From the NCBI GenBank assembly GCA_011087645.1, contig JAALLF010000001.1:208046-272045 (forward strand): a stretch of DNA of 64,000 nt, in the 5' to 3' direction. This stretch comes from Alphaproteobacteria bacterium. GTDB taxonomy: Bacteria > Pseudomonadota > Alphaproteobacteria > UBA6615. The notes under the pieces were generated by a model. It made no database searches, was not told the origin of the DNA, and was given only the letters and a program-made list of their open reading frames with translations. Both the position numbers and the translations under genes were made by a program. Below, one piece after another: positions 9,306-41,785 of this stretch. Within the stretch, counting starts at the first letter, position 1. The number at the start of each line of letters is the position of its first letter.

Positions 9306-9475
9306 ACCCTCTCGCAGCGGGAGAGGGTGGTGAGCGATAGCGAGCCGGGGGAGGGGAAAACAAAACCCTATACCAAGCTTGTCGAAGCATGAGGCCGGCA
9401 GCACCTCGACCCTTCGACAAGCGCAGGACGAGGTGCAGGACGAGGTATTGCAGGTAGATTATGCCCCCTCACCCC
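9306..9475. repeat. Mosaic intergenic repeat element, copy 1 (CCCTCTC-GCAGC-GGGAGAGGG palindrome with CTTCGACAAGC/GACGAGG modules)
   Basis: Shares modules with the copies at 12018, 19679, 20965, 35505 and 41668. Overlaps the glcF stop codon. Confidence 0.6.
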
Positions 9476-10761
9476 AACCCAGATGGTTTGGGACCGCCGG
9501 TCGCCCAGTCGAGCAACTCGACGGTGTGGACGATCGGTGTGTCGAGGGCGTCGGCCAATTGCGCCATGCAGCCGATATTGCCGGTGGCGACGACGGCGGG
9601 CGCAGTAGCCGCGATGCTGGCGACCTTGCGGTCGCGCAACTGGTCGGCCAATTCGCTTTGCAGAATGTTGTAGGTGCCGGCGGAGCCGCAGCACAGATGG
9701 CCTTCGGCAGGCTCGCTTACCTCAAACCCGGCGGCCGACAGCAGGTCGCGCGGCTGCCGGCGCAGACCCTGGCCGTGCTGCATGGAACAGGCTGAATGAT
9801 AAGTCACCGGCAGATCCACCGCGCCGTCGAAAGTCGATAATTCAATATCGAGTTCGGCGACGAATTCGGTGACGTCGCGGGCCAATTCGGAAATCCGCGC
9901 CGCTTTCGCCGCATAGTCAGGGTCGTCGCGAAACATGAAGCCGTAATCCTTGACCTGGGTGCCGCAGCCGCTGGTGTTGATGATCAAGGCGTCGAGCCCG
10001 CCGTTTCCGATCTCACGGGACCAGGCATCGATATTGGCCTTCGCCTGCGCGTGGGACTGATCGACCTTGCCAAGGTGATGGACCAAGGAGCCACAGCACC
10101 CGGCGCCGTTGGTCACCACCACCTCAACCCCCAGGCGTGTCAGCAGTCGCACCGTCGCCTCGTTTATCTGCGGCGCCAACACGGTCTGGGCGCAGCCGTT
10201 GAGCAGCGCCACCCGCTTTCTCCGGGGGCCTTCGGCGGCAATCGCTTGCGGACGATCGACCGGCGAGCGTTTCGCCAGCCGGCGCGGCGCCAGCGCCAGC
10301 ATGGTGCGCACTCGTTTCGGCAGGAGCGGCGCGAACGGGCGCACCAGCATGGCGGCGGTCATCACCAGGCGAAACCGCGATGGATAGGGAATGGTCATCG
10401 CCAGGCCCCAGCGGATCATGCGATCCATCGCCGGGCGCCGGTACGTCTCTTCGATATGCTTGCGACCCTGATCGACCAAATGTTGGTAGTGCACCCCGGA
10501 CGGACAGGTCGTCATGCACGACAGGCACGACAGGCAGCGGTCGATATGGGTCACCACTTCTTCGGTCGCCGGCGCCGCTTCCTCGAACATTTGCTTCATC
10601 ATGTAGATGCGCCCGCGCGGGCTATCGAGCTCGTCGCCGAGCAGCACATAGGTCGGACAGGTCGCGGTGCAGAAACCGCAATGTACGCACGAACGCAGAA
10701 TATCGTTGGCGACCGCGGTATCGGAATCGGCCAATTGCGCGAGAGAGAAATGGGTTTGCAT
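9469..10761 (-). CDS. glcF: Glycolate oxidase iron-sulfur subunit GlcF
   Basis: Two 4Fe-4S cysteine clusters (CVHCGFCTATCP and CLSCLSCMTTCP) and C-terminal CCG domains. Confidence 0.9.
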   Translation of the reverse strand: MQTHFSLAQLADSDTAVANDILRSCVHCGFCTATCPTYVLLGDELDSPRGRIYMMKQMFEEAAPATEEVVTHIDRCLSCLSCMTTCPSGVHYQHLVDQGRKHIEETYRRPAMDRMIRWGLAMTIPYPSRFRLVMTAAMLVRPFAPLLPKRVRTMLALAPRRLAKRSPVDRPQAIAAEGPRRKRVALLNGCAQTVLAPQINEATVRLLTRLGVEVVVTNGAGCCGSLVHHLGKVDQSHAQAKANIDAWSREIGNGGLDALIINTSGCGTQVKDYGFMFRDDPDYAAKAARISELARDVTEFVAELDIELSTFDGAVDLPVTYHSACSMQHGQGLRRQPRDLLSAAGFEVSEPAEGHLCCGSAGTYNILQSELADQLRDRKVASIAATAPAVVATGNIGCMAQLADALDTPIVHTVELLDWATGGPKPSGLG

Positions 10762-10766
10762 GCGAC

Positions 10767-12017
10767 CTAAACCCCCTGATACATGCGGCCGGGATTTAAG
10801 ATGCGCCTAGGGTCGAAGCTGTCCTTGACCCGCGCCGACAAGGCCGCCAGCCCCTTGTCTTGCGGTTGGAAGACCGGCACCCGCGCCCGCACAGCGTCGT
10901 CCGCACGCACGAGGGTCGCGTGACCGCCGCCGTGGTTGGCCAAGACGGTGCGCACCACGTCGGCCCCGCCATCGTCACTGGGGCCATCGAGCCGATACCA
11001 GATCAAACCGCCTCCCCAATCGTAGAACGCTACGCCCGGCAAGGCGGCGGCAATGTCGCGCACCACCGCGGGGCCGGCACTCGGCGTTGCCGACAGACGC
11101 CACAGGGGCTGGTCACCGGTCTGAAACGGCGCGGCGTCGCGCACCTCCCGCCATAGCTTTATCGAGTTGGCGCTGTGCAACTCCTCCAGCGTGCCGAACG
11201 ATGCCAATAGATCACGCAAGGCTTCCAGGCGCGCCGCCACCGACGGGCTGAACCCCTCGATGCGCAACGCCGTTACCGCACCACCGGCGCCGCCGACATA
11301 GCTCACCGCCGATTGGCCCGCCACAGGGCCGGGCAAATGCGCCGCGCCGGAGACTTCATGGCTGGAATTGAGCGCCGCGGTCATGGCGCGCGCCGCCGCG
11401 TCATCATCAAGGCCGAGCACCAGCAGGGTGCGTATTTTCTCCGGCGCCGGCAGCACCTTGATGGTGATCTCGGTCAGCGCCGCCAACGTGCCGTATGAGC
11501 CGCTCATCAGTTTTGACAGGTCGTAGCCGGTGACGTTTTTGACCACCCGGCCGCCGCTCTTAAACGCCTCGCCGCGCCCGCTCATCCCCTGCACGCCGAG
11601 CACATGGTCGCGCGCCGCGCCGGCGTTAATTCGTCGGGGACCCGCTAAATTACAGGCAATCGCACCGCCCAAGGTGCCGCCCTCGTGGCCGTATAGAAGG
11701 GCCATATGCATCGGCTCGAACGCCAATTGCTGGCCCTTTTCGGCGACGGCCGCCTCGATCTCGGCCAAACTCGTGCCGGCGCCAGCGGTCAGCACCAGCT
11801 CTTCCGGTTCGTAGAGGGTGATGCCGCTCAGGCCCGACAGGTCCAGGCTGTGCCCGATAATCCGATTACCCTCGCCGCCATGGGCTCCCAGCAATGGCCG
11901 GCCCAACCCGCGCTTGGTTGCCGCGCCAGCGATCTCGAGCGGGATCTCCTCACCCGCCGCCCAGGCCAGGACCTCGCCAACCTGATCGGCGTTTTCGGGG
12001 GTAAGGGTCTCCGTCAT
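10767..12017 (-). CDS. glcE: Glycolate oxidase FAD-binding subunit GlcE
   Basis: FAD-binding PCMH-type domain positioned between glcD and glcF. Start taken at ATG 12017 (MTETLTPE). Confidence 0.85.
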   Translation of the reverse strand: MTETLTPENADQVGEVLAWAAGEEIPLEIAGAATKRGLGRPLLGAHGGEGNRIIGHSLDLSGLSGITLYEPEELVLTAGAGTSLAEIEAAVAEKGQQLAFEPMHMALLYGHEGGTLGGAIACNLAGPRRINAGAARDHVLGVQGMSGRGEAFKSGGRVVKNVTGYDLSKLMSGSYGTLAALTEITIKVLPAPEKIRTLLVLGLDDDAAARAMTAALNSSHEVSGAAHLPGPVAGQSAVSYVGGAGGAVTALRIEGFSPSVAARLEALRDLLASFGTLEELHSANSIKLWREVRDAAPFQTGDQPLWRLSATPSAGPAVVRDIAAALPGVAFYDWGGGLIWYRLDGPSDDGGADVVRTVLANHGGGHATLVRADDAVRARVPVFQPQDKGLAALSARVKDSFDPRRILNPGRMYQGV

Positions 12018-12300
12018 ACCCCCCACCCTCCCGCTTCGCGGGTCCCTCCCTCCCCCACAAGGGCAGGGCAATCGCACGTGACAGCCTCGCCCTTCGAGAC
12101 GCCGCCCTTCGGGCGGCTCCTCAGGATGAGGCTTTGCGCATATCTAACAGAATTCCTCATCCTGAGGGCTCGCGCAGCGAGTGTCTCGAAGGACGAGGAA
12201 TTCCAGCGCCGCCACATGCGATTCCCCTGCCCAAAGGGGGGGAGGGTGTATGGCCTATAAGCCCTCCCCCTTGATGGGGGAGGGTTTGGGTGGGGGTGAT
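12018..12300. repeat. Mosaic intergenic repeat element, copy 2, inserted between glcD and glcE
   Basis: Contains CTCCTCAGGATGAGG...CCTCATCCTGAGGG, GTCTCGAAGGACGAGG and the palindrome CCCTCCCCC-TTGAT-GGGGGAGGG. Confidence 0.6.
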
Positions 12301-12314
12301 GTCTCGCATCGAGC

Positions 12315-13802
12315 TTAGAACCGCGGCAGGTCGGGGAAGCGCGTTTGGCCGCGATGGATGTGCATGCGGCCGAGTTCGGCGCAGCGGTGCAGGGTTGGAA
12401 ACACCTTACCCGGATTGAGCAGCTGCTGGGGGTCGAAGGCGCATTTCACCCGTTGCTGCTGGTTGAGATCCTCTTCGGAGAACATAACACCCATCAAATC
12501 GCGCTTCTCGACCCCGACCCCATGCTCACCGGTGAGTACCCCGCCGACTTCGACACAGAGACGCAGAATATCTGAGCCGAAATCCTCCGCCCGTTCCAGC
12601 TCACCGGGATTATTGGCGTCGTACATGATCAGCGGATGCAGATTACCATCGCCGGCATGGAAAACATTGGCCACGCCGAGATCATATTTCTTCGACATCT
12701 CGGCCATGCGCGCCAACACTTCGGGCAGGCGGTGGCGCGGGATGGTGCCGTCCATGCAGTAATAATCGGGGGTCAGGCGGCCAATAGCCGGGAAGGCTGC
12801 CTTGCGCCCGGCCCAAAACTGCTCACGCTCTTCTTCGCTTTCGCTAACCCGCACCGAAATCGCGCCGCGCGCATCGGCCAGCCCGCGCACCCGCTCGATC
12901 AAATAATCGACTTCCGCCGGCGGACCGTCGAGCTCGACCAGCAATAACGCGCCGACATCTATGGGATAGCCCACCTGCACGAAGGCTTCCGCCGCCGCGA
13001 TGGCCGGGCCATCCATCATCTCCATACCGCCGGGAATGATGCCGTCGCTAATAATATCGGCGACGCATTGGCCACCGGCCTCCGAGGTGTCGAAACCGAT
13101 CATCAGCGCCCGCGCCGTGGTCGGCTTGGGCAGAATGCGCACCGTGACCTCGGTAATGATCCCCAGTAGGCCTTCCGAGCCGGTCATCAGGCCCAGCAGG
13201 TCGTAGCCTTCGCTGTCCATATGCTTGCCGCCGAGGCGCAGAATTTCGCCGTCGGGCAGCACCATTTCGAGCCCCAGAATGTTGTTGGTGGTGAGACCGT
13301 ATTTCAGACAATGCACGCCGCCGGAATTCTCCGCCACATTGCCGCCGATAGTGCACGCGATCTGGCTCGACGGATCGGGCGCGTAATAGAACCCCTCGCC
13401 CTGCACCGCTTGCGAAATGCCCAGATTGGTCACGCCCGGCTGCACCCGCGCGCAGCGGTTATCGTAGTCGATCTCCAGCACCCGGTTGAATTTACCCAAG
13501 CCCAGGGTGACGCCATCTGCGAGCGGCAGCGCACCGCCCGATAGCGACGTGCCGGCGCCGCGGGGTACGATTTTCACATTGTTCTGGTGGCAATAGGCCA
13601 GAACTTCGCTGACCTGCGCCACGTTTTCCGGCAGCACGACGATCATCGGCAATTGGTGGTAGGCGGTCAGCCCATCGGATTCATAGACCGCCAGCTCTTT
13701 TTCGTCGGCGATGACGCTTTGGTCCGGCACGATCGCGCGCAGGGCGGCGATGATCTCGGCGCGCCGGGCCAATACCGCTTGATCGGGATCGGGCATCTTC
13801 AT
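12315..13802 (-). CDS. glcD: Glycolate oxidase subunit GlcD (FAD-linked oxidase)
   Basis: FAD-binding domain followed by an FAD-oxidase C-terminal domain. First gene of the glcDEF order. Confidence 0.9.
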   Translation of the reverse strand: MKMPDPDQAVLARRAEIIAALRAIVPDQSVIADEKELAVYESDGLTAYHQLPMIVVLPENVAQVSEVLAYCHQNNVKIVPRGAGTSLSGGALPLADGVTLGLGKFNRVLEIDYDNRCARVQPGVTNLGISQAVQGEGFYYAPDPSSQIACTIGGNVAENSGGVHCLKYGLTTNNILGLEMVLPDGEILRLGGKHMDSEGYDLLGLMTGSEGLLGIITEVTVRILPKPTTARALMIGFDTSEAGGQCVADIISDGIIPGGMEMMDGPAIAAAEAFVQVGYPIDVGALLLVELDGPPAEVDYLIERVRGLADARGAISVRVSESEEEREQFWAGRKAAFPAIGRLTPDYYCMDGTIPRHRLPEVLARMAEMSKKYDLGVANVFHAGDGNLHPLIMYDANNPGELERAEDFGSDILRLCVEVGGVLTGEHGVGVEKRDLMGVMFSEEDLNQQQRVKCAFDPQQLLNPGKVFPTLHRCAELGRMHIHRGQTRFPDLPRF

Positions 13803-13922
13803 CGGCTTAGATCCTCAACTTAAGGCAATCACCAATTATAGGCGGTGTTCAGGCAACAAAAAACCGCGCCAACCGCGCGGTTTTCAGATCGCGGTCAAAC
13901 CGCATCGCAGGAACGCCGGATA

Positions 13923-14048
13923 TCAACCCTGGCGCGCCTTAAAACGCGGGTTGCGCTTGTTGATCACATAGAGACGCCCGCGCCGTTTCACCACCTGGCA
14001 GTGGCGATCGCGCTTCTTCAAAGTTTTCAACGAACTAGCGACTTTCAT
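13923..14048 (-). CDS. rpmJ: 50S ribosomal protein L36 (zinc-independent type, as in Alphaproteobacteria); absent from the ORF track because shorter than 60 aa
   Basis: Translates to [41 protein letters not shown], an unmistakable L36. Confidence 0.8.
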
Positions 14049-14283
14049 CGGTCTGACCTTCAGCTATCATCGGCACCCGAAATGGGGTGCGGCGCGGAAC
14101 CTACAAAGCCCCCGAAGGCGTGTCAACCACTGCTTTTCAGCCAATAATGCCGCCTTTGATATACGATAAGCGTCAAAACGCCGCCGTATCGCCGGGGGTC
14201 GCGCACCAGCCGCCAAGGCGTGCTATACATCGGATAAGCCGAATCGGAATTGCCCTTATTATGAACACGCAGAGGAATTGCGC

Positions 14284-15270: not shown

Positions 15271-15446
15271 AGCACCGCCGGCGGGGCTTCAGGCGCGTGA
15301 CGTGGCCAATTTTCGCACCAAACACAAAATCGCTATCAAACTAAAGTCTGTTGTCTGCGGAGGCGATAACAGTGCAGTATCGGTGCGCACAAAAATTGCG
15401 TGTGATCGTTGAAGTTGCACGTGCATAACAAAATGGAGTGAGAGAG

Positions 15447-16481: not shown

Positions 16482-16557
16482 TCCGATTGGATAAGTGGTC
16501 CGCCCGTGAAGGGCGGGCCACTTTCCATTAGACTTTGTCGCTTAAAGATTAGCTGTT

Positions 16558-18854: not shown

Positions 18855-18866
18855 AGCGAGGCGATC

Positions 18867-19640: not shown

Positions 19641-19678
19641 TCACACGACGCAGCCGAAGTTACGTCTCGGCAAATAAC

Positions 19679-19800
19679 CTTCTCCCATAGGGAGAGGGTG
19701 GCGAGCGAATGCGAGCCGGGTGAGGGGTTAGGGACAGTGACAGGTATCCTGGATATACCGTAACCCCTCACCCCAGCCCTCTCCCTATGGGAGAGGGGGC
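19679..19800. repeat. Mosaic intergenic repeat element, copy 3
   Basis: CTTCTCCC-ATA-GGGAGAGGG ... GCGAGCCGGGTGAGGGG ... CCCCTCACCCC ... CCCTCTCCC-TAT-GGGAGAGGG. Confidence 0.6.
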
Positions 19801-19821
19801 TTGGCGCGTTAATCACCCGAC

Positions 19822-20883
19822 CTATTCCGCGCTGGCGAGGCGGTCATTGAGGACTTCGCTGTAACCGAACAGCGCCGGCGTACCGCCGGTATGCAGGAAG
19901 ACCACCGTCGATCCGCGGGCGATGACGCCCTCTTTCGCGAGATGAACCAGCCCGGCCAGGGCGCGGCCAGAATAGACCGTATCGAGCATCAATCCCTCGG
20001 TGCGCGCCGCCAATAACACAGCCTCGTAAGTCGCGTCGTTCAACCGGCCATAGCCCGGCGACAGCACGTCATCGACCGTGCGAATATCGTCGCCGGAGAC
20101 GACGGTCGGCAATCCGAGCAGCTCCTCGACATTTCGGCAGTTGTCGGCGATACGCTGCGCCTGGGCGTCGGCGTCGCGGCGGACACAAATGCCGAACACC
20201 GGCGCGCGAACGCCCAGCGCCCGCAGGCCGACCAGAAAACCGCCATGGGTCATGCCGCTGCCAGAGGGCACCACGAAGGCGTCGATAGCGTCTGGGCCGT
20301 CCAACTGTTCGACCAGTTCCATCGCCCCTTTGACATAACCCAGCGCACCGATCGGTGGATTTCCCGGTCCCAACGGGATGACATAGGGGTTGAAGCCTTG
20401 GCGCCGCTCTTCGTCGGCAATTTCATGCAGGCGCGCGTCCGCGCCGGCCTCGTCCTCGCCTTCGGGATAGGTATGGACCATCGCGCCCAACAGCCGGTCG
20501 ACCAGCACATTGCCGCTATTCACGTAGCATTCGTCGTAGAGCGGAACCCGGTCTTCCAATTGCACATGACAGCGCAGGCCCAACTTGGCGGCCGCTCCGG
20601 CAGCCGCTCGGACATAATTAGACTGAACCGCGCCGGTAATCAGGATCGTATCGGCGTTCTGCGCCAGCGCTTTGCCCAGATAAAATTCAAGCTGGCGGAT
20701 CTTGTTGCCGCCAAAGGCCAACCCGGTGGCGTCGTCGCGCTTTATATGGAGATCCAAACCCAGCGCGTCGCCCAACCGCGGCGCCGCATCGAGTGGCGTC
20801 GGGTAATGGCCCAGGGGCGTCGCGGGAAATGCCGCCAGCAGGCCCGAGACATCGTGGCGCATCGTCATGACTTCTGTATCCAA
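19822..20883 (-). CDS. PLP-dependent D-cysteine desulfhydrase / ACC-deaminase-family enzyme
   Basis: Fold-II PLP family with a lysine motif in ...FGGNKIRQLEF... The nearest relatives named precisely are DcyD/ACC deaminase. Confidence 0.8.
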   Translation of the reverse strand: MDTEVMTMRHDVSGLLAAFPATPLGHYPTPLDAAPRLGDALGLDLHIKRDDATGLAFGGNKIRQLEFYLGKALAQNADTILITGAVQSNYVRAAAGAAAKLGLRCHVQLEDRVPLYDECYVNSGNVLVDRLLGAMVHTYPEGEDEAGADARLHEIADEERRQGFNPYVIPLGPGNPPIGALGYVKGAMELVEQLDGPDAIDAFVVPSGSGMTHGGFLVGLRALGVRAPVFGICVRRDADAQAQRIADNCRNVEELLGLPTVVSGDDIRTVDDVLSPGYGRLNDATYEAVLLAARTEGLMLDTVYSGRALAGLVHLAKEGVIARGSTVVFLHTGGTPALFGYSEVLNDRLASAE

Positions 20884-20964
20884 TTTACAATCATCGACAA
20901 CACCTCGCTTAGTTGCCTCCGCCGGTCAAGTCCGGGGTAACATAAAGCGCGAACTGGGCGGTTA

Positions 20965-21152
20965 GCCCCTCTCCCGCCGGGAGAGGGGTCGGGGTGAGGG
21001 GACATAATTCCATCCGCACCACCTCATCCTGAACTCGTCGAAGGATCGAGGTGGTGCGGCCCTCATACTTCGACAAGCGAGCCATGAGATGACTAATTTC
21101 CCCTCACCCGGCTCGCTGCTGCTCGCCACCCTCTCCCAACGGGAGAGGGTTT
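20965..21152. repeat. Mosaic intergenic repeat element, copy 4; ends with CCCTCTCCC-AAC-GGGAGAGGG plus T6
   Basis: Carries CCCCTCTCCC-GCC-GGGAGAGGGG, CACCTCATCCTGAACTCGTCGAAGGATCGAGGTGGTG and CCTCATACTTCGACAAGCG. Confidence 0.6.
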
Positions 21153-21153
21153 T

Positions 21154-22314
21154 TTACCCCAGCGCGTATTCCAGCTCGGCAAGCAGGTCGCGGGCGTCTT
21201 CCACGCCGACCGACAAGCGCACCAGACTGTCGCTGATGCCCAGCTCGGCGCGTTGTTCGGCGGGGATCGAGGCGTGGGTCATGATCGCCGGGTGCTCGAT
21301 CAGGCTTTCCACCCCCCCCAGGCTCTCGGCCAGGGCGAACAGCCGGCAGCGCTCGAGGAAGGCAACGCTTTCGTCGAGCCCACCTTTTAGGATGACCGTC
21401 ACCATGCCGCCGAAGCCGTTCATCTGCCGGCTTGCCAGTTCGTATTGCGGATGGCTTTCCAGCCCGGGATAGATCACCTGTTCGACCGCCGCGTGGCCCT
21501 CAAGATATTCGGCGACCTGTTGGGCGTTGTTGGCGTGCTGGGCCATGCGCAGGTGCAGGGTTTTCAGCGCGCGCAGCGACAGGAAACTGTCGAACGGCCC
21601 GGCGATGGCGCCCACCGCGTTCTGCAGATAGGCCAGTTGCTCGGCCAGATCGTCACGCTCAACCACCACCACGCCGCCGACCACATCGGAGTGGCCGTTG
21701 AGATATTTGGTCGCCGAATGGACGACGATATCGATGCCGTGATCGAGCGGCCGCTGGATGTAGGGCGACGCGAAGGTGTTGTCGCACACGGTGATCAGCC
21801 CATGCTCTTTGGCGACCGCGGCGACCGCCGACAAATCGACGATGCGCAGCATCGGGTTGGTCGGCGTCTCCACCCAGATCATCTTGGTGTTGGGCTTGAT
21901 CGCCGCGGCGATGCGATCCGGATCGGTCATATCGACCAGGGTGAAATCCAGATTGGCGGTGCGCCGGCGCACATTTTCGAAGATCCGGAAGGTGCCGCCA
22001 TACAGATCGTCCATCGAGATAACATGATCGCCGCTATCGAGTAACTCGAGGATGGTGCCGATCGCCGCCATGCCCGAGGCAAAGGCAAAGCCCGAGCTGC
22101 CATTCTCCAGATCGGCGATGCAAGCCTCGTAAGCCCCGCGCGTCGGGTTCTGAGTGCGGGCATATTCATAGCCCTTATGCTTGCCGGGGCTCTCCTGGAC
22201 GAAGGTCGAGGTGGCGTAGATCGGCGTCATGATCGCGCCGGTCGTCGGGTCGGGCTGCTGGCCGGCGTGGATGGCGCGCGTGGCAAATCGCGGCCGGTTG
22301 GTCTTCTCGGTCAT
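21154..22314 (-). CDS. Cys/Met-metabolism PLP enzyme (cystathionine gamma-lyase/beta-lyase/gamma-synthase family)
   Basis: Fold-I PLP family with the SATKYLNGHSDVVGG PLP-lysine motif. Confidence 0.85.
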   Translation of the reverse strand: MTEKTNRPRFATRAIHAGQQPDPTTGAIMTPIYATSTFVQESPGKHKGYEYARTQNPTRGAYEACIADLENGSSGFAFASGMAAIGTILELLDSGDHVISMDDLYGGTFRIFENVRRRTANLDFTLVDMTDPDRIAAAIKPNTKMIWVETPTNPMLRIVDLSAVAAVAKEHGLITVCDNTFASPYIQRPLDHGIDIVVHSATKYLNGHSDVVGGVVVVERDDLAEQLAYLQNAVGAIAGPFDSFLSLRALKTLHLRMAQHANNAQQVAEYLEGHAAVEQVIYPGLESHPQYELASRQMNGFGGMVTVILKGGLDESVAFLERCRLFALAESLGGVESLIEHPAIMTHASIPAEQRAELGISDSLVRLSVGVEDARDLLAELEYALG

Positions 22315-29569: not shown

Positions 29570-29578
29570 GCGCGCGGT

Positions 29579-32990: not shown

Positions 32991-33142
32991 AATTTTTAGC
33001 TCACATAGTTACAGTGACCAGGTATTGGCCATTCCGCTTAACAAACTAATAACTCTCGCCGGGGCGGTGTCGGTGCGGCTGTGGCCGTAATTTAGCGTTT
33101 GCTGATTGACAGGCCCAGCAAGGGCGTTTAATCCTTGCCCAT

Positions 33143-33200
33143 CGCGCCGATTTGAGCGGCCAGCTTGCGGGCGCGTAATAAATGCAGCTAAACGGGCGAT
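33143..33200 (+). ncRNA. Candidate SAM-II-like riboswitch aptamer 1 (P1 CGCGCC/GGCGCG; loop GAUUUGAGCGGCCAGCUUGC pseudoknots with 3' GCAGCUAAAC)
   Basis: Sequence and H-type pseudoknot architecture resemble SAM-II elements upstream of met genes in Alphaproteobacteria. A second similar copy follows. Confidence 0.45.
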
Positions 33201-33208
33201 TGCATCAT

Positions 33209-33247
33209 CCGCCCAGCATGGCTGTGGCGGTTTTTTGTTGTTTTAGA
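33209..33247 (+). terminator. Intrinsic terminator (CCGCCCAGC-AUG-GCUGUGGCGG plus UUUUUUGUUGUUUU) immediately after aptamer 1
   Basis: Stem of about 9 bp followed by a long U tract, as read from the sequence. Confidence 0.6.
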
Positions 33248-33300
33248 ACCAGTTATGGAATTCCGGGCCGATCCCCCGGCGGCATAGCCGCGCACCGGAT

Positions 33301-33352
33301 CCGCGGTAATTTGATGGGCAGCTTGCGTCCGCGTCACCAATAGCTAAAGCGC
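33301..33352 (+). ncRNA. Candidate SAM-II-like riboswitch aptamer 2 (UAAUUUGAUGGGCAGCUUGCGUCCGCGUCACCAAUAGCUAAAGCGCC)
   Basis: Aligns position by position with aptamer 1 (AUUUGA..GGC.AGCUUGCG..CGCGU....AGCUAAA.). It sits directly 5' of the metZ start region. Confidence 0.45.
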
Positions 33353-33404
33353 CGTGGGACAGGTGTTCCGCGGGCCCGAATTCAGGCCTGGGAACCTATG
33401 TGTC

Positions 33405-34595
33405 ATGACCAAAGACCCCTCTAATTATCGCCAGGAGACCGCCCTGGTGCGCGGCGGCTTGCAGCGTTCGCCCAACCGCGAGACCAGCGAGGCGCTGTTT
33501 CTCAACTCCGGCTATGTGTTCGACGACGCAGCCCAAGCCGAAGCCGCGTTCAAGGGCGAGAACGACAACTACATCTATTCGCGCTACGGCAATCCCACGG
33601 TCACCATGTTCCAGGAGCGGCTGGCCGCGCTTGAGGGCGCGGAAGCCTGCTACGCCACCGCCACCGGCATGGCGGCGGTGTTCGCGTCCCTGGCCTGCCA
33701 GCTCAACGCCGGCGACCGGGTGGTGTCATCGCGCGCGGTGTTCGGCTCGTGCCACATCATCGTCGACCAGATCCTGCCGCGCTGGGGCATCGAGACCGTG
33801 TTCGTCGACGGCACCAATCTCGACGAATGGCAGGCGGCATTGTCTAAGCCGACCCACGCGGTGTTCCTGGAAAGCCCGTCCAACCCTATGCTCGATCTGG
33901 TCGATATCGCCGCGGTCAGCGAAATGGCCCACGCCGCCGGCGCCTGCGTCATCGTCGACAATGTGTTCGCCACGCCGCTTTATCAACGTCCGCTCGAGCT
34001 CGGCGCCGACATCGTGGTCTATTCCGCCACCAAACATATCGACGGCCAGGGGCGATGTCTGGGCGGCGCAGTGCTGGCCGATGCGGCTTTCATGACAGAG
34101 CGCTTTATGCCGTTCTACCGCCACACCGGCCCGGCGCTCAGCCCGTTCAATGCCTGGATTATGCTCAAGGCGTTGGAGACGCTATCGGTGCGCGTCGAGC
34201 GCCAATGCGACAACTCGCTTGACCTAGCGCGCTTCCTGCTAGCCCAACCGAAGGTCACCAAAGTCTGCCATCCGGGGCTGGAGAGCCACCCCCAAGCCGA
34301 GCTGGCGCGGCGGCAAATGTCAGGCTTCGGCAATCTGGTGACCTTCGAAGTCGAGGGCGGTAAGGCGGCGGCATTCCGGATCGCCGACGCCCTGCGGCTC
34401 ATCGATATCTCCAACAATCTCGGCGATACCAAGAGCCTGATCTGCCACCCGGCGACCACCACCCATTCCAGACTATCCGAAGAAGAGCGCAGCCAGCTCG
34501 GCATCTCACCCGGCGTCTTACGCATCTCGGTGGGCTTGGAACATCTCGACGATCTGAAGGAAGATCTGGAGCGCGCGCTCGCCGCTTTGCCCTAG
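33405..34595 (+). CDS. metZ: O-succinylhomoserine sulfhydrylase
   Basis: Full-length colinear similarity to MetZ, including a PLP-lysine motif (SATKHIDGQGR). ATG 33405 matches the length of MetZ homologs. GTG 33354 is an alternative start. Confidence 0.85.
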   Translation: MTKDPSNYRQETALVRGGLQRSPNRETSEALFLNSGYVFDDAAQAEAAFKGENDNYIYSRYGNPTVTMFQERLAALEGAEACYATATGMAAVFASLACQLNAGDRVVSSRAVFGSCHIIVDQILPRWGIETVFVDGTNLDEWQAALSKPTHAVFLESPSNPMLDLVDIAAVSEMAHAAGACVIVDNVFATPLYQRPLELGADIVVYSATKHIDGQGRCLGGAVLADAAFMTERFMPFYRHTGPALSPFNAWIMLKALETLSVRVERQCDNSLDLARFLLAQPKVTKVCHPGLESHPQAELARRQMSGFGNLVTFEVEGGKAAAFRIADALRLIDISNNLGDTKSLICHPATTTHSRLSEEERSQLGISPGVLRISVGLEHLDDLKEDLERALAALP

Positions 34596-34644
34596 CGATC
34601 AACCGGCCTATATAATTTCCGCAGCGGCCGAGGAGATAGCAACG

Positions 34645-35481: not shown

Positions 35482-35504
35482 GCGGCGGGTCGATTGGGTT
35501 CGCC

Positions 35505-35600
35505 GCCCTCATACTTCGACAAGCTTAGTATGAGGAATAATGTTGGTGAGAATAAAAACTCAGCCTCATCCTGAGCTTGTCGAAGGACGAGGCTTCAATC
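35505..35600. repeat. Mosaic intergenic repeat element, copy 5
   Basis: CCCTCATACTTCGACAAGCTTAGTATGAGG ... CCTCATCCTGAGCTTGTCGAAGGACGAGG. Confidence 0.6.
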
Positions 35601-35609
35601 AAATAGTAC

Positions 35610-36377: not shown

Positions 36378-36509
36378 GTTATTCTCTCCCGCGAAATATG
36401 TTGGCCGCCATGCCGCCACATTCGCCAGCCAAATGCAATCGGCGGGTAATTGTGGCAATCTTCGATGGCGGCCATCGGGTCGCGGCGCACGAAAGATCAG
36501 AAGGGTCCT

Positions 36510-38249
36510 GTGCATATCGAAGCGTTGAGTTTACGCGAGGTCATCGTCTTTCTTGTCGCCGCCGGTGTCGTCGTCCCCCTGGTCCAGCGGCTTAAAGTCA
36601 GCCCGGTGCTTGCCTTTCTCGCCGTGGGCGTCGTCATCGGGCCCCATGGGCTGGTCCGCTTTGCCGATACTCTGCCGTGGCTTGGCTATGGGACGATCGC
36701 CGATCTGGAAGGGGTCCGCGCGCTGGCCGAACTCGGCGTCGTATTCCTGCTCTTCATGATCGGTCTGGAACTCTCTCTGGAGCGGTTATGGGCGATGCGG
36801 CGGCTGGTCTTTGGCCTCGGCGGCGCCCAGGTTGTGGTCACCGGCGCGGTGATCGCGGGGATTGCGTCTTTGTTCGACAATTCGTTGCCGGTCGCCACCA
36901 TATTGGGCGCCGGCTTCGCGCTGTCCTCGACCGCCATCGTCATGCAGATCCTGGCCGAGAACCGGCGTCTCGGAACGCGGACCGGGCGCACCAGCTTCGC
37001 CATTCTGCTGTGCCAAGACTTAGCCGTCGTGCCAATCCTGTTCCTGGTCGCCGCCTTCGCCGCGCAGAGCGACGGGTCGCTGCTGCTGGCCTTTGGCGGG
37101 GCTATCGGCCAGGCGCTGGGCGCGGTCGCCGTGATCTTGGTCATCGGCCGTCTGGTGATCCGGCCGCTATTCCGATTTATCGGCAGCGCCGCCAGCCGTG
37201 AGATGTTTCTCGCCCTCGTGCTGCTGGTAATCATCGGCACCGCCCTGGCGACCCAGAAAGCCGGTCTGTCCCTGGCGCTCGGCGCGTTCCTGGCCGGACT
37301 GTTATTCGCCGAGACCGAGTATCGCCACGCCATCGAAGTCGATATCGAACCCTTCAAGGGATTGCTTCTGGGGCTGTTCTTCGTCTCGGTCGGCATGTCG
37401 ATCGATCTGGCCCAGATCGCCGCGCAGCCGATTTGGCTGTTCGCTTCCGTCGCGGCACTATTCCTGGTGAAAAGCCCAATTATCTTCGTCCTGGCGCGGC
37501 TGTTCGGCGAACCGCGCTCGGTAGCGCTCGAAGCGGCGTTGCTGCTCGGCCAGGGCGGCGAATTCGCCTTCGTGATCTTCGGCTTGGCCGCCGGCTTGGG
37601 CTTGTTGCCGGCCGACACCGCCCAGTTCATGTTGATCGTCGCCGGGTTGACCATGATCGCCACCCCGCCGGTGGCCCACGCAGCGCGCAAGGCCGCGCGT
37701 GCACTCGAAGCGCGGGACGCGCGCCACGGCGCGCCGGCGGCCGATATTCCCGCCGATCTCGCCAACCATGTGATCATCGTCGGCTTTGGCCGGGTCGGTC
37801 AGTTGCTGGGCTCGCTACTCGACACCCAAGAGCTACCCTATGTTGCCTTGGATATCGACGCCAACCTGGTCGCGCGCTTTCGCACCCACGGCGCCAGCAT
37901 CTTTTTCGGTGACGCCAGCCGTCCCGAAATGTTGCGTAAATTTGGTGTCGAAGACGCCGCCGCCTTGGTGGTGACTATGGACAGCCCGCAAGCCGCCGAG
38001 CAGGTGGTCACCGCCGCGCGCGAACACTGGCCCGACCTCGCCATCTATGCCCGCGCCCGCGACACCGACCATGCCGCGCGTCTCATAGGCCACGGCGCCA
38101 GTCACGCGGTGCCCGAGACAACCGAGGCTAGCCTACAGCTCAGCGAGATAGTGCTGATGGGGGCCGGCGTTCCCGACAACGCCGCCCGCCACATGGTCGA
38201 GACGCGCCGCCAATCCGAGCAGGCCGCTATCGATGAAAGCCGATCGTGA
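36510..38249 (+). CDS. Monovalent cation:proton antiporter-2 (KefB/KefC-like) with C-terminal TrkA-N/RCK domain
   Basis: Colinear with E. coli KefB over the membrane domain and the IIVGFGRVGQ Rossmann motif. Probable GTG start at 36510 (AGAAGGG RBS); the ORF track extends back to 36450. Confidence 0.8.
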   Translation: MHIEALSLREVIVFLVAAGVVVPLVQRLKVSPVLAFLAVGVVIGPHGLVRFADTLPWLGYGTIADLEGVRALAELGVVFLLFMIGLELSLERLWAMRRLVFGLGGAQVVVTGAVIAGIASLFDNSLPVATILGAGFALSSTAIVMQILAENRRLGTRTGRTSFAILLCQDLAVVPILFLVAAFAAQSDGSLLLAFGGAIGQALGAVAVILVIGRLVIRPLFRFIGSAASREMFLALVLLVIIGTALATQKAGLSLALGAFLAGLLFAETEYRHAIEVDIEPFKGLLLGLFFVSVGMSIDLAQIAAQPIWLFASVAALFLVKSPIIFVLARLFGEPRSVALEAALLLGQGGEFAFVIFGLAAGLGLLPADTAQFMLIVAGLTMIATPPVAHAARKAARALEARDARHGAPAADIPADLANHVIIVGFGRVGQLLGSLLDTQELPYVALDIDANLVARFRTHGASIFFGDASRPEMLRKFGVEDAAALVVTMDSPQAAEQVVTAAREHWPDLAIYARARDTDHAARLIGHGASHAVPETTEASLQLSEIVLMGAGVPDNAARHMVETRRQSEQAAIDESRS

Positions 38250-38267
38250 TCGGCCTCGCTTAACCGG

Positions 38268-38603
38268 TTATTCGTTGTCGGCTAACGCCCGCATATTGAG
38301 AATGAAGCCGATTACATCGTCGGTTTCCTGCCGCGACAATTGCAGGTCGGGCATATTGCGATGGGGGGTCTGCAGAAACACCCGTAAGCCCAACTCGGTG
38401 ACCGCCGGATCGGCGGCGATCTCATCGAACGGGGGCGCGTCGGAACGCGGAATCAAAGTTTGCGTCTCGGAGACAAAGTGGCACTGAGCGCAAACCTCCA
38501 GCGCCAATTTCTTGCCGGCCACTATGTCCGCAACGGTCTGGCTCTGGGCGATTGTCGGCGCCAACAGGGATAGCGCAATGGCTGTCACGGGGAGAATTCG
38601 CAT
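38268..38603 (-). CDS. Small periplasmic c-type cytochrome
   Basis: Signal peptide and a single CAQCH haem-binding motif. Confidence 0.7.
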   Translation of the reverse strand: MRILPVTAIALSLLAPTIAQSQTVADIVAGKKLALEVCAQCHFVSETQTLIPRSDAPPFDEIAADPAVTELGLRVFLQTPHRNMPDLQLSRQETDDVIGFILNMRALADNE

Positions 38604-38789
38604 GGTTGAGCAACTCCTTCGTTAACGGACCGACGTGCGCGAACACCCATGATCAGCGCTCTTATTGATTAAAGACTGCGCGCCAAAACCGAGGAGTGCC
38701 TTGACGCACATCAATGGTCGCCCAGGGGCGAAAGGGGACAATCGAATCGCTCACTGGCGAACCGCCACCGCGGATAATGAGGAACAATC

Positions 38790-39128
38790 GTGATTAAACT
38801 GACCGCAAGATATTTTGGTGCAGCTTTCATTTTCGCTATGGCGATAGGCGTCAGCGGTACCGCACAGGCCGATGACGCGCGCGATCGCGCCGCCGGCGCA
38901 GCAGTGGCGCAAGAGCTGTGCAGCGGTTGCCATATTGTTGCCGAAGGCCAAAGCGGCCCGGTTCCCGACGGGCCAGCGCCCTTCCCAGTTATCGCCGAAC
39001 GGCCAGGACGGACCGTCGGCTATCTTCAGGCCTATCTGTCGGCCCCCACACCGCCGATGCCCCACGTACCGCTCTCGAAACGCGAAATCGACAGCGTCAT
39101 CGCCTATATCCGCTCGTTCGCGGATTGA
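38790..39128 (+). CDS. Small periplasmic c-type cytochrome (paralog of 38268..38603)
   Basis: Signal peptide and a CSGCH motif. The C-terminal half aligns with the convergent neighbour. Confidence 0.7.
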   Translation: MIKLTARYFGAAFIFAMAIGVSGTAQADDARDRAAGAAVAQELCSGCHIVAEGQSGPVPDGPAPFPVIAERPGRTVGYLQAYLSAPTPPMPHVPLSKREIDSVIAYIRSFAD

Positions 39129-39144
39129 GGCTTTCGCCAGCGAA

Positions 39145-39381
39145 AACAACGAACGCGGTAGGGTCCGCGCGACAGCGCAAGATTAAGACTCAATCCCGCT
39201 AAGCAGATATTCTGAGGTAGAAAATGGTGGGCGCGGTAGGGCCCGCGCGACAGCGCAAGATTAAAACTCAATCCCGCTAAGCAGATCTTCTGAGGTGGAA
39301 AATGGTGGGCGCGGTAGGGCCCGCGCGACAGCGCAAAATCGAGACTCAATCCCGCTAGCTACATTTTTCCGGCATAAGGAA
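39145..39381. repeat. Three tandem 78-79-bp direct repeats, each beginning with a copy of the 3'-terminal 17-19 nt of the adjacent tRNA-Val
   Basis: AATGGTGGGCGCGGTAGGG is found at 39223, 39301 and 39380 (the last is the true tRNA end). A diverged copy, GCGGTAGGG, lies at 39155. Each copy is followed by CCCGCGCGACAGCGCAAGATTA.ACTCAATCCCGCTAAGCAGAT.TTCTGAGGT.GAA. Confidence 0.8.
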
Positions 39382-39456
39382 TGGTGGGCGCGGTAGGGAT
39401 TGAACCTACGACCCCCTCGATGTCACCGAGGTGCTCTCCCGCTGAGCTACGCGCCC
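39382..39456 (-). tRNA. tRNA-Val (anticodon GAC)
   Basis: The reverse complement folds as a cloverleaf: acceptor GGGCGCG/CGCGCCC, D-arm GCTC-AGCGGGA-GAGC, anticodon stem CCTCG with loop GUGACAU (anticodon GAC), T-arm GTAGG-TTCAATC-CCTAC, and an encoded CCA. Confidence 0.85.
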
Positions 39457-39614
39457 CACCTTAACGTGGGCCGGATGCCTGATTTGGTCTGGCAAAGCGC
39501 GCGACAGATTGCGCTTTCGAAAACGGCGATCCGGTCGCGCGTCTTACAACGACAGGGGGTTGATGGCAAGCCTGCGCCGCGTCGAAACACGACGCCAGGG
39601 AGCTCGATCAGAGG

Positions 39615-39977
39615 TTAGGGGCCGACGGAGAGGATGCGGTCGACATTGTCGACTAGTTCGCGCAGATGAAACGGCTTCGACAAGACTTTGGTTTCGCCCA
39701 TCTCGACCCGCGCATTCATCGCCACCGCGGCAAACCCGGTGATGAACAACACCTTCAAGTCGGCGTTCACCCGGTTGGCCTGATGCGACAGTTCGATGCC
39801 ATCCATCCCGGGCATGACAATATCGGCGATCAGCAGCTCGAAAGGCCGCTCATGGACTTCATGGAGCGCCGCCAAACCGTCGGGCACCGCGATCACCTCA
39901 TGGCCGTTACGCTCCAGCGCCCGCGCCAGGAACTCACGCATGGATGTGTCATCTTCAGCCAGCAAAATGCGCGCCAT
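39615..39977 (-). CDS. cpdR: Single-domain response regulator, CpdR-like
   Basis: 120-aa REC domain, highly similar along its length to Caulobacter CpdR (ILLAEDD..MR.FL..ALE, DIVMPGMDGIEL, FITGFAAVA, LSKPFHLRELVD). Confidence 0.8.
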   Translation of the reverse strand: MARILLAEDDTSMREFLARALERNGHEVIAVPDGLAALHEVHERPFELLIADIVMPGMDGIELSHQANRVNADLKVLFITGFAAVAMNARVEMGETKVLSKPFHLRELVDNVDRILSVGP

Positions 39978-40209
39978 GGCGTGACGATCCTCTTATTCTT
40001 CTTGGGCTGTGGCAGCCGTCGAGGCTGTCACTGCGGTGGAGCGTCAGGTTAAACGGCAGTTCTTGCGAAACTGTTAAGCAAATATAAATAAAATCGAAAC
40101 ATACCGTAATACCGCAAACTTAATTTCCAGCCGGGAAGCCGGATTTGCCCCCAATTTCGAAGCGTGGCCGGGGATGACAGAGCGCGTGGTTTTGGTTAAT
40201 CAATAGGCC

Positions 40210-41094
40210 ATGGATCAAGAAACCCGAATCGATGCCGATCAAGCGATCGAGATTCTGGCGCCGGTGCAACAAACGGCGCCGCTGGTTTTTTCATCCCCCC
40301 ATAGCGGCCGCGACTATCCGGCGGACTTTCTGGCCGCCGCCCGCCTCGACGATCAGGCAATTCGGCGCTCGGAAGACAGTTTCGTTGACGAAATTTTCGC
40401 CACCGCCCCCCATTACGGCGCGCCGCTGCTCAGAGCGCTGTTTCCGCGCGCTTATGTCGACCCCAATCGCGAACCCTATGAGCTTGATCCGGCGATGTTC
40501 GACGGGGCCCTGCCCGGCTATGTGAACAAACGCTCGCCGCGGGTCGCCGCCGGGCTAGGGACAATCGCCAGGGTAGTCGCCAACGGCGCCGAAATTTATG
40601 CTGGCAAGCTGAAATTTGACGAGGCCCATGCGCGCATCGACCGGTGCTACCGGCCCTACCACGCAGCGCTAGAAGACCTCATCGAGACCACTCAGCGACG
40701 CTTCAACCATTGTATCTTGATCGACTGCCATTCCATGCCGTCGGTCGGCGGACCAATGGAAAACGACGCCGGCCATCGCCGCCAGGTGGATTTCGTGCTG
40801 GGCGATGCCCACGGCCGCAGCTGCTCGCGCGCGTTGACCGTGATGGTTGAGGAAACCCTGCGCGGCATGGGCTACACCGTGGTGCGCAACGCCCCCTATT
40901 CGGGCGGCTTCATCACCCGCAATTACGGCCAACCGGCCAAGGGTGTGCACGCCCTGCAGATTGAGATTAATCGCGGGCTTTACATGTATGAACCGACCTA
41001 TTCCCGCAGCGACGAAATGGCCGCGGTGGTGGCCAACATTGCTCAGCTAACCGAGCGCCTGGTGGGCTTAGAGCCGCAGGCGCTCGCCGCCTAA
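40210..41094 (+). CDS. N-formylglutamate amidohydrolase-family protein
   Basis: FGase (PF05013)-type motifs SSPHSGRDYP and IDCHSMPS. Confidence 0.8.
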   Translation: MDQETRIDADQAIEILAPVQQTAPLVFSSPHSGRDYPADFLAAARLDDQAIRRSEDSFVDEIFATAPHYGAPLLRALFPRAYVDPNREPYELDPAMFDGALPGYVNKRSPRVAAGLGTIARVVANGAEIYAGKLKFDEAHARIDRCYRPYHAALEDLIETTQRRFNHCILIDCHSMPSVGGPMENDAGHRRQVDFVLGDAHGRSCSRALTVMVEETLRGMGYTVVRNAPYSGGFITRNYGQPAKGVHALQIEINRGLYMYEPTYSRSDEMAAVVANIAQLTERLVGLEPQALAA

Positions 41095-41117
41095 CCGCGA
41101 CAATTCGGCGAAACACC

Positions 41118-41651
41118 TTGCCCGGCGATAGCGTTTTTATCCGTGATGCGACCGAAGACGATCTGGCGGCGATCCAGCTTATCTATGCCCATCACGTGAA
41201 CCACGGCTTGGCGTCGTTCGAAGAAATACCGCCCGACCTCGCGGAAATTTCGCGCCGCCGCGATGTGGCCCGCGAACATGATCTGCCCTACCTGGTCGCC
41301 GAGCAGGAAGGCGCGGTCCGCGGCTTCGCCTATGCCAGTCCGTTTCGCGACCGCACCGCCTACCGCTACACCGTCGAGGATTCGGTCTATGTGGCGCCAG
41401 ACGCGCTGGGCGGCGGCGTCGGCTCGGCGCTATTATCAGCGGTGATCGAACACTGCACCGAACGGGGATTCCGCCAGATGATCGCGGTAATCGGCGATAC
41501 CGCCAACCAAGCCTCGATCGGCCTCCACGCCAAACATGGGTTCGTTCACGCCGGTGAGATGCCGGCTGTCGGGTTCAAGTTCGGCCGTTGGGTCGATAGC
41601 GTGCGCATGCAACGCGCCCTGGGTGAGGGCGATAAAACCCTGCCGGAATGA
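41118..41651 (+). CDS. GNAT-family N-acetyltransferase (phosphinothricin-acetyltransferase-like)
   Basis: GNAT motif A region GVGSALLSAVIEHCTERGFRQMIAVI. Confidence 0.8.
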   Translation: MPGDSVFIRDATEDDLAAIQLIYAHHVNHGLASFEEIPPDLAEISRRRDVAREHDLPYLVAEQEGAVRGFAYASPFRDRTAYRYTVEDSVYVAPDALGGGVGSALLSAVIEHCTERGFRQMIAVIGDTANQASIGLHAKHGFVHAGEMPAVGFKFGRWVDSVRMQRALGEGDKTLPE

Positions 41652-41667
41652 CACCGACCTGCGGGCA

Positions 41668-41785
41668 ACATACTTCGAGACGGCGCTAAAGCGCCTCCTC
41701 AGTATGAGGCTTTGTGAAACGAATGAAACGAACCTCATCCTGAGGAGCGATCGAAGATCGCGTCTCGAAGGGTGGCGCCTCAAAT
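41668..41785. repeat. Mosaic intergenic repeat element, copy 6
   Basis: CATACTTCGAGACG..CTCCTCAGTATGAGG ... CCTCATCCTGAGGAGCGATCGAAG..GTCTCGAAGGG. Confidence 0.6.

Follow-up and report, generated by a model that had tools for sequence, protein, structure and literature searches.

BoxC of Escherichia coli (Bachellier et al.), known from enterobacteria, is an extragenic, GC-rich imperfect palindrome of about 40-56 nucleotides (nt) with the consensus CCCCTCACCC-TAA-CCCTCTCCC-loop-GGGGCGAGGGG, and we know of no function for it. The REP, REPIN and BIME repeats of Enterobacteria and Pseudomonas are short imperfect GC-rich hairpins that mostly come as inverted doublets with a short spacer, lie 3' of genes and in convergent spacers, are depleted from promoters and form mosaics with other repeats; a placement at gene 3' ends that avoids promoters is given as the pattern of REPs generally in Di Nocera et al. 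2013 (PMC3733652). The CGTC REPs are described in the family definition of the same paper as mostly inverted dimers with no known transposase, each with an unpaired CGTC, TGTC or CCTC tag, a stem of 8-9 base pairs (bp) starting with AT, a 4-5-nt loop and a CCA tail. RIME1/RIME2 and Br-REP1/Br-REP2 are likewise mosaic, palindromic and intergenic in Alphaproteobacteria, and the Br-REPs are located in transcribed 3' untranslated regions (UTRs; PMC5082802). Here we analyze 64,000 nt of an alphaproteobacterial genome (GCA_011087645.1, contig JAALLF010000001.1, positions 208,046 to 272,045; "the window"), where six intergenic loci are, with high probability, places at which small palindromic repeats, non-coding and non-autonomous, have inserted. 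The repeats belong to two unrelated families nested in one another: a BoxC-like family, A, and a family of bulged hairpins, B.

A first-pass annotation of the window had located six copies of a palindromic repeat and built them from a single vocabulary of three freely recombining modules, A, B and C. Direct reading of the six regions found all copies present with the quoted motifs at the quoted places, and the extents given were nearly right, except that copy 2 covers 12016-12302 and copy 6 covers 41662-41781. Called genes flank every copy, as had been claimed, and the only overlap with a gene is the glcF stop codon in copy 1. Together the six regions make up 995 nt, or 1.6% of the window. The proposed density of about one copy per 10 kb is right for the window, while most of the copies are lacking in relatives. 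No further copy was found outside the six regions in the 64 kb by a covariance-model search for B. The parts of the copies are as follows, with fold z-scores against dinucleotide shuffles and covariance-model scores for the B units.

Copy 1, 9306-9475, 3' of glcF: BoxC-like composite, one terminal hairpin lost.
9306-9328: A hairpin of copy 1.
9329-9346: linker GGTGAGCGATAGCGAGCC of copy 1.
9347-9356: GGGGGAGGGG of copy 1.
9377-9396 and 9400-9437 (minus strand): loop of copy 1, a decayed B doublet, the latter part a weak covariance-model match (E=0.14).
9464-9475: CCCCCTCACCCC of copy 1, with the glcF stop codon TCA inside it at 9469-9471.
Copy 2, 12016-12302, between glcD and glcE: 287-nt nested palindrome.
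Outer arms of copy 2: ACCCCCCACCC... and CCCTCCCCC-TTGAT-GGGGGAGGG-TTT-GGGTGGGGGT (right arm also given as ending GGGTGGGGG), a divergent BoxC-like variant with the same layout.
Middle arms of copy 2: GGGCAGGGCAATCGCA and TGCGATTCCCCTGCCC.
12081-12135 (minus strand) and 12151-12202 (plus strand): core of copy 2, a B doublet, 61.8 and 52.6 bits.
Copy 3, 19673-19802, between convergent ABC ATPase and PALP genes: BoxC-like palindrome without B units, z=-10.2.
19678-19698: hairpin of copy 3.
19699-19727: linker and GGGTGAGGGG of copy 3.
19728-19761: loop of copy 3, about 34 nt.
19762-19799: CCCCTCACCC-CAG-hairpin of copy 3.
Copy 4, 20963-21156, between Cys_Met_Meta_PP and PALP genes: complete composite of about 190 nt, z=-10.5.
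20966-21004: BoxC-like unit of copy 4.
21018-21055 (plus strand): B unit in the loop of copy 4, 23.8 bits, with a degenerate reverse B at about 21059-21090.
21100-21150: CCCCTCACCC, linker and hairpin of copy 4.
21151-21156: T-run of copy 4, directly after the hairpin 21128-21150.
Copy 5, 35503-35596, between convergent YDMC-family (hyp278) and SDR genes: stand-alone short-form B doublet, z=-7.2.
35503-35539 (minus strand) and 35560-35596 (plus strand): units of copy 5, 23.3 and 34.7 bits.
Copy 6, 41662-41781, between GNAT and phenylalanine hydroxylase genes: stand-alone long-form B doublet, z=-8.9.
41662-41713 (minus strand) and 41729-41781 (plus strand): units of copy 6, 39.5 and 55.0 bits.

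It is clear that the copies share real modules, as the first-pass annotation had held, and not merely a GC-rich low complexity. With up to three mismatches CCCTCTCCCNNNGGGAGAGGG was found five times in the window against 0.02 matches expected by chance, the full B pattern gave two matches against 0.00 expected, and GCGAGCCGGGKGAGGGG occurs three times exactly. Repeat detection joined copies 3 and 4 by an inverted match of 59 nt (85%), copies 1 and 4 by inverted matches of 59 and 54 nt (83-85%), copies 2 and 6 by one of 52 nt, and the two halves of copy 5 by one of 29 nt (86%). Every copy is much more stable than its shuffles, with z-scores from -4.4 to -13.7, in agreement with the strong hairpins predicted earlier, and copy 2 folds as one nested 287-nt hairpin (-201.3 kcal/mol, z=-13.65). 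No Rfam 15 family reached its gathering score in the six regions, and a search of them with a permissive E-value returned only miR-7386 and LPR69, at 26 bits and below threshold.

The probability that we are looking at chance GC-rich spacers or at protein-coding sequence is practically nil. The motifs are G- and C-rich and small open reading frames (ORFs) are called over them, such as a 34-aa gene in copy 4, but two to five matches stand where 0.00-0.02 are expected, and models built from the units of other genomes (the BoxC profile and the B model below) find the window elements with E-values down to 1e-16. Furthermore, the variation is compensatory in the stems and not codon-like, which refutes this reading and bears out the earlier statement that the six-frame ORFs across the copies are artefacts.

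A unit of family A reads CCCCTCACCC, a linker of 3 or 18 nt, and CCCTCTCCC-loop-GGGAGAGGG. Seen as a layout, a hairpin CCCTCTCCC-N3-GGGAGAGGG stands beside GGGGTGAGGGG, sometimes with the 18-nt linker GGCGAGCGnnnGCGAGCC between the two. Repeated in inverted orientation at the other end, the unit forms terminal arms of about 55 nt in palindromes of 120-190 nt, and in copies 1, 3 and 4 these terminal inverted repeats are 54-59 nt long and 83-85% complementary. A profile was built from the 22 E. coli BoxC members, e.g. TTCCCCTCACCCTAACCCTCTCCCCAAAGGGGCGAGGGGAC, that are listed in the supplement of Petrillo/Cozzuto et al. 2008 (PMC2267715), and the window was searched with it using nhmmer. The profile matched 19763-19801 in copy 3 over the full model length (E=1.3e-8), 20966-21004 and 21097-21149 in copy 4 (E=4.6e-4 and 0.014, respectively) and 12262-12296 in the outer arm of copy 2 (E=0.053), and it also matched many of the fetched alphaproteobacterial loci. 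Judged by these profile matches, module A is a BoxC-like unit and a relative of the E. coli repeat, with which it shares the core order CCCCTCACCC, 3 nt, CCCTCTCCC, short loop and GGG(A/C)GAGGG as well as the extragenic location and high GC content. It differs from E. coli BoxC in its alphaproteobacterial host, in the optional 18-nt linker, and in the inverted pairs that serve as palindrome arms around a loop which can hold other repeats.

The distribution of A-type units is wide. BLAST of copy 4 against plasmids gave matches in Xanthomonas sacchari (18 places), Klebsiella, Enterobacter, Azospirillum, Sphingobium and Neorhizobium, and BLAST against E. coli found an A-type unit in 560 of 5426 complete genomes, where phnL and phnK have a pair of BoxC units between them (L003 1420-1540, AR_0077). 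The phnL-phnK spacer is polymorphic in E. coli, and MG1655 has classical REP/BIME sequences there (L055 890-1010). On the X. sacchari plasmid NZ_CP010410.1 (L004 1360-2060) about five mosaics of about 140 nt in tandem separate cstA from a pirin gene. Each has a BoxC-like unit, a long stem GGGTGAGGGTACGGG...CCCGTACCCTCATCC and a hairpin CACCTTCTCCC-N4-GGGAGAAGG.

Family B is unrelated to A, so the single vocabulary of three modules has to be given up. A B unit is a bulged hairpin of 29-55 nt, usually found in inverted doublets. Its outer stem of 9 bp, CCTCATCCT/AGGAYGAGG, is followed by an invariant 2-nt GA bulge on the 3' side and a 4-bp stem GAGG/(U or C)CUC, and past this stem there is a mismatch and then a GC-rich apical stem of 5-10 bp with a loop of 3-5 nt, which varies from copy to copy yet remains complementary. 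A short form, CCTCATCCTGAGCYTGTCGAAGGAYGAGG, does without the apical stem. What had been listed as module C, CCTCATACTTCGACAAGC..GTATGAGG, turns out to be a B-type unit in reverse complement, and the "C" parts do score as opposite-strand B units under a covariance model built solely from B units of other genomes. That model, a check which the first-pass annotation had named beforehand, detected seven units in the window at E<1e-4, all of them within copies 2, 4, 5 and 6, plus the weak eighth unit in copy 1. Three doublets in the window are intact (12081-12202, 35503-35596 and 41662-41781) and two are decayed. The units of copy 5 are separated by a gap of 20 nt, with cores 28 nt apart; those of copy 6 by 15 nt, with cores 23 nt apart and apical stems that differ between the two units.

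The B hairpin shows strong covariation with an invariant bulged core. Among 68 distinct units 93.1% of the paired cells were complementary, compared with 83.6% in shuffles and at most 53% when the partners were slid, and 90 cells were changed on both sides compared with 25.8 in shuffles, a value reached by none of 500 shuffles. Outer-stem pairs swap from CC/GG to GG/CC in 7-9 of the 68 sequences, whereas T13, G14 and TCGAA are invariant (T-GAGG...CTCGAA); pair 9-48 is A-U in 41 of them and A.C in 25. The flanks beyond the core are also complementary above chance, with a mean of 1.57 consecutive pairs against 0.45, which none of 2000 permutations reached.

B resembles the CGTC REPs in taxonomic range, in its mostly inverted dimers and in having no known transposase, and it starts with CCTC-AT, while the CGTC REP definition (PMC3733652) allows the variant tag CCTC followed by AT. 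However, the CCTC of B is base-paired with the 3' GAGG in 60-66 of the 68 sequences, the interior of 11-35 nt contains a bulge and a second stem instead of a simple 8-9-bp stem with a 4-5-nt loop, and neither a CGTC tag nor a CCA tail was found in the B flanks; the distinction is one from the family definition in that paper and not from its individual family sequences. With the REP/REPIN/BIME repeats B has in common the short, imperfect GC-rich hairpin, the predominance of closely spaced inverted doublets, the placement 3' of genes and in convergent spacers away from promoters, and the clustering into mosaics with other repeats. It is unrelated to them in sequence, has a hypervariable apical stem, and lacks the GTAG tag, which is present in the 10-nt stretch 5' of just 19 of 312 units, in flanks with no conserved tag. 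The Br-REP1 and Br-REP2 consensus sequences of Bradyrhizobium are unrelated to both A and B.

The exact B pattern, CCTCATCCTGAG-N4-34-TCGAAGGAYGAGG, has matches in 40 contigs of IMG/VR, and the species-representative genomes contain it at no fewer than 120 loci; Alphaproteobacteria of several orders account for nearly all of these. Among the matches listed are Bradyrhizobium, Rhodopseudomonas, Methylocystis, Beijerinckia, Methylobacterium, Devosia, Rhizobium, Aurantimonas, Chelativorans, Caulobacter, Henriciella, Glycocaulis, Reyranella, Parvibaculum and Rhodospirillaceae. On plasmids, full-length matches to the short form were confined to alphaproteobacterial replicons and always unannotated, and the few matches elsewhere (Comamonas, Methylobacter and a cyanobacterium) were weak and partial. 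A full-text literature search with the motif strings found no relevant paper, and from its sequence the family seems to be formally undescribed; it is absent from Rfam 15.

The two families are nested, B within A, and one composite has been copied as a unit. An alignment showed that copies 1 and 4 are homologous over their whole length, the internal B doublet included, and the composite of about 190 nt must therefore have been copied as such, while copy 3 and an element of a relative (L046, below) have only the arms of about 55 nt in common with copies 1 and 4. Elsewhere a BoxC-like unit was found near just 2 of 202 B clusters, from which we conclude that such nesting is peculiar to this lineage. 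The mosaics thus arise by nesting followed by copying of the whole composite and not by free recombination of modules; the core of the earlier reading, mosaic palindromic intergenic repeats that resemble REP or BIME and perhaps RIME, stands, while its module list and its account of the mosaic origin do not.

Presence and absence at orthologous sites show that the elements are inserted, non-autonomous repeats. Nine syntenic relatives of the glc locus (L046-L054) were found via the exact L36 protein encoded beside glcD. In all nine the glcD stop and the glcE start are 5 nt apart, compared with 297 nt in the window, where copy 2 intervenes, and the nearest relative, L046 (about 84% nucleotide identity), reads TAAGGGCGATGAC at this junction. 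ATG borders copy 2 at both ends, or alternatively an imperfect repeat of 9-11 nt, ATG(A)CG(G)AGAC, does so, and the G-rich right end of the copy puts GGAGG 9 nt upstream of the glcE start codon, where it may serve as the glcE ribosome-binding site. Downstream of glcF, L046 carries an orthologous A-type element with the same arms and loop start but no intact B units; relative to it, copy 1 of the window has lost one terminal hairpin and is fused to the end of glcF. The distance from stop codon to element start is 0-4 nt for copies 1 and 4.

Sites of three further copies are empty in L259, part of a 4.33-Mb contig found via PALP homologues, with genes about 80% identical to those of the window and no A or B units in 21 kb. 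There the Cys_Met and PALP genes are 7 nt apart where the window has copy 4, the PALP and ABC ATPase genes overlap at the site of copy 3, and the SDR and YDMC genes are 12 nt apart at that of copy 5. The copy 5 site holds a long-form B doublet with a different spacer in L261 and L263, and where the window has copy 6 the spacer of L261-L263 measures 95 nt and contains no more of an element than an 11-nt remnant resembling an arm, ATACTTCGAGA. In L260 the copy 6 site contains an AsnC/Lrp-type regulator gene (9413-9880) divergent from the phenylalanine hydroxylase gene. This regulator is gone from the window genome, and copy 6 fills the spacer 41652-41853. A scan of metagenomes with a KefB-like protein gave 80 loci whose sole syntenic gene was the KefB-like one, and it allowed no empty-site comparison.

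These alignments show that in this lineage the elements were inserted behind genes, where spacers were very short, and within the glc operon, after the split from relatives that are about 80-84% identical. They come and go in whole blocks over times that correspond to the divergence of genera. Another idea, that the PALP gene (19822-20883), bounded by copies 3 and 4 in inverted orientation, came as a mobile cassette and took the place of the Mem_trans gene found there in L046 and marine relatives, was rejected. L259 has PALP at the identical place without repeats, so that the repeats must have entered around a resident gene.

If the A palindromes were miniature inverted-repeat transposable elements (MITEs) of the DDE type, they would be deletion derivatives of an insertion sequence (IS), moved by the transposase of that IS with duplication of the target. 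The long complementary terminal arms and the element sizes of 120-190 nt would suit such an origin, as would the possible imperfect direct repeat around copy 2 and the IS-rich related genomes (L263). No IS with these ends was seen, though no genome-wide search for a parent IS was made; at copies 3, 4 and 5 no target duplication is discernible because the empty sites are just 80% identical; and the arms are themselves BoxC-like units that occur singly or in tandem in other bacteria. On balance a MITE origin looks very unlikely. The syntenic L263 (ENA ERZ28763718 ctg124808) is rich in IS genes, namely rve, DDE_Tnp_1, DDE_3, IS1595 and Transposase_mut, which break up the mla operon region, uninterrupted in the window.

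Several observations weigh against insertion of mobile repeats as the explanation of the six loci. No clean target-site duplication was seen. The loci L001, L002 and L258 are 99.99-100% identical to the window. Two metagenome-assembled genomes (MAGs) of the same species, likewise 99.99-100% identical, show no insertion polymorphism, and so no recent movement is visible. With E. coli RayT as tblastn query, neither the window nor 2.5 Mb of loci carrying B yielded a RAYT-like ORF, the weak matches being phage tail and GroEL genes, and none of the 26 plasmid records with RayT homologues was alphaproteobacterial. The compensatory changes could stem from arm-to-arm templated repair in a DNA palindrome, with no need for selection on an RNA. 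Finally, selfish REPINs do not usually keep an exact core across orders as B does, which could instead point to a conserved function in the host.

The same data bear on the proposal that the B doublets are REPINs and owe their copying to a RAYT, the gene for which would be present once elsewhere in the genome and inherited vertically. Neighbouring B units form 92 inverted pairs, with spacers mostly of 0-60 nt, and essentially no true direct pairs, since the 13 same-strand neighbour calls are mostly overlapping detections. Inverted doublets are thus the rule, and the imperfect hairpin with its conserved bulge and A.C mismatch has the type of single-strand asymmetry that HUH Y1 enzymes recognize; an orientation bias of single units (40 versus 13, see below) would also fit. 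Set against this are the missing RAYT in window, B-bearing loci and alphaproteobacterial plasmids, the lack of a GTAG or CGTC tag, the near-equal numbers of head-to-head and tail-to-tail doublets (51 of one arrangement and 41 of the other), and a core common to several orders, where those of REP/REPIN/BIME are lineage-specific. In addition, published survey work reports no dedicated transposase (PMC3733652) for alphaproteobacterial CGTC REPs, and one RAYT group has been reported as rare in Alphaproteobacteria (PMC5581495). A dedicated RAYT elsewhere in the genome is for these reasons unlikely.

With respect to gene context, the repeats avoid promoter-side spacers. Using crude gene calls based on GC content at third codon positions (GC3) in the 120 genomic loci, the 104 classifiable B clusters fell into 37 convergent, 63 tandem and 4 divergent spacers, which differs from the background of 107, 305 and 108 (chi-square p=2.5e-6), and only 8 of 142 clusters lay inside a called gene. 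Singleton B units between co-directional genes were in the sense orientation in 40 cases and antisense in 13 (binomial p=2.7e-4), with the qualification that genes were called only approximately and that an apparent singleton may be a doublet whose other unit has decayed. Twelve of the 13 antisense singletons carry the A.C variant that gives G.U in mRNA (Fisher p=0.008). A constraint at the RNA level would account for these strand preferences, and so would single-strand insertion biased towards one replication strand. As the transcripts of about half of the sense singletons would contain an A.C mismatch, the evidence is mixed. On the phage-like IMG/VR contig 2767802479_000002 (L005, L028) seven single B units occur within 19.5 kb in one orientation, opposite to nearly all genes of the contig, and most are then followed by CCACC.

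It could be argued from this placement that the hairpins are host-selected cis-acting RNA elements, i.e. terminators, 3'-end stabilizers or intercistronic expression dividers, whose spread is secondary. Such a view would account for the enrichment 3' of genes and the near absence from divergent spacers, for stems that covary around an invariant internal loop, for the sense-strand preference of singletons with G.U-forming variants on the other strand, and for seven co-oriented singletons in one phage-like operon; and 3' UTR REPs of E. coli and Bradyrhizobium are transcribed and functional according to work cited in PMC5082802. However, doublets show both strands equally, about half of the sense singletons are mismatched in RNA, close relatives do with spacers of 5-12 nt at the sites concerned, and the same sequence is found after unrelated genes. 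The general terminator role suggested by the first-pass annotation is not supported either, as only one of about 12 hairpins, 21128-21150 in copy 4, has a T-run, without a co-oriented gene facing it. The plus-strand terminator proposed at this place is real as a hairpin with T-run (21128-21156), but the flanking genes are both on the minus strand, and no intrinsic terminator 3' of a co-oriented gene was found in the six regions. Host selection as RNA elements is a possibility that we regard as doubtful.

We return to insertion of mobile, non-autonomous repeats. Inverted pairs of A units form palindromes, and B doublets either stand alone (copies 5 and 6) or sit in the loops of A (copies 1, 2 and 4); one A-B composite was then copied as a unit (copies 1 and 4). 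We imagine that the repeats are mobilized in trans by an enzyme that recognizes the bulged hairpin and probably acts on single-stranded DNA, as with REP/REPIN elements, and that they persist where promoters stay undisrupted. Once transcribed they would give very stable 3'-end or intercistronic hairpins, which could slow 3'-exonucleases or stall ribosomes near stop codons. E. coli REPs are described in the summary of PMC5082802 as blocking 3' exonucleases, being able to terminate transcription and stalling ribosomes when within 15 nt of a stop codon, and by analogy a role as terminator or mRNA stabilizer may be considered for the present repeats.

A bolder suggestion, which we put forward only tentatively and hold to be rather improbable, is that B is an undescribed element of the entire class Alphaproteobacteria whose invariant bulge and loop, U-GAGG...CUC-GA-A, set in a covarying stem, are read by a conserved protein. 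Such a reader could be a new hairpin-specific mobilizing enzyme, in which case it would account for the spread of these "orphan" REPs in the absence of RAYTs, or a conserved RNA- or DNA-binding host factor.

Apart from the six copies the window contains other repeats and structured RNAs. Direct repeats with a 120-nt period at 8127-9266 (minus strand) encode the blades of a PQQ/BamB-like beta-propeller protein and are not non-coding repeats. Three tandem 78-nt repeats at 39154-39387, the others 95% and 71% identical to the first, abut the tRNA-Val(GAC) gene at 39382-39456 (minus strand), and each starts with the 3'-terminal 17 nt of this tRNA, TGGTGGGCGCGGTAGGG; they look like stacked att-site remnants of repeated integration and excision. 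Two tandem SAM_alpha riboswitch aptamers, 33134-33211 and 33293-33367, score 48.6 and 33.8 bits, the latter just below the gathering score of 36, and lie upstream of the ORF 33354-34595 for a pyridoxal-phosphate enzyme of Cys/Met metabolism. The second aptamer overlaps the called GTG start, and the true start codon of this ORF is probably further downstream. A small RNA of the mmgR/suhB family (RF00519, 46.7 bits) is found at 42696-42768 (minus strand), just 3' of the phenylalanine hydroxylase gene.

As a kind of feature, nested BoxC-like and REP-type repeats are ordinary in bacteria. For the annotation of this genome they mean that spurious ORFs can be removed, such as the 34-aa "gene" in copy 4 and a 5' extension of glcE, and copy 2 explains the unusual 297-nt gap in the glcDEF operon. 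BoxC, known from enterobacteria, has clear relatives in Alphaproteobacteria and xanthomonads, and a REP-type hairpin with an exact core, not in Rfam, is common to alphaproteobacterial orders. A set of orthologous filled and empty sites is now available for studying the insertion of "orphan" REPs, and identification of a protein that reads the bulged hairpin would bear on the question of how REPs of Alphaproteobacteria can spread in the absence of a RAYT.

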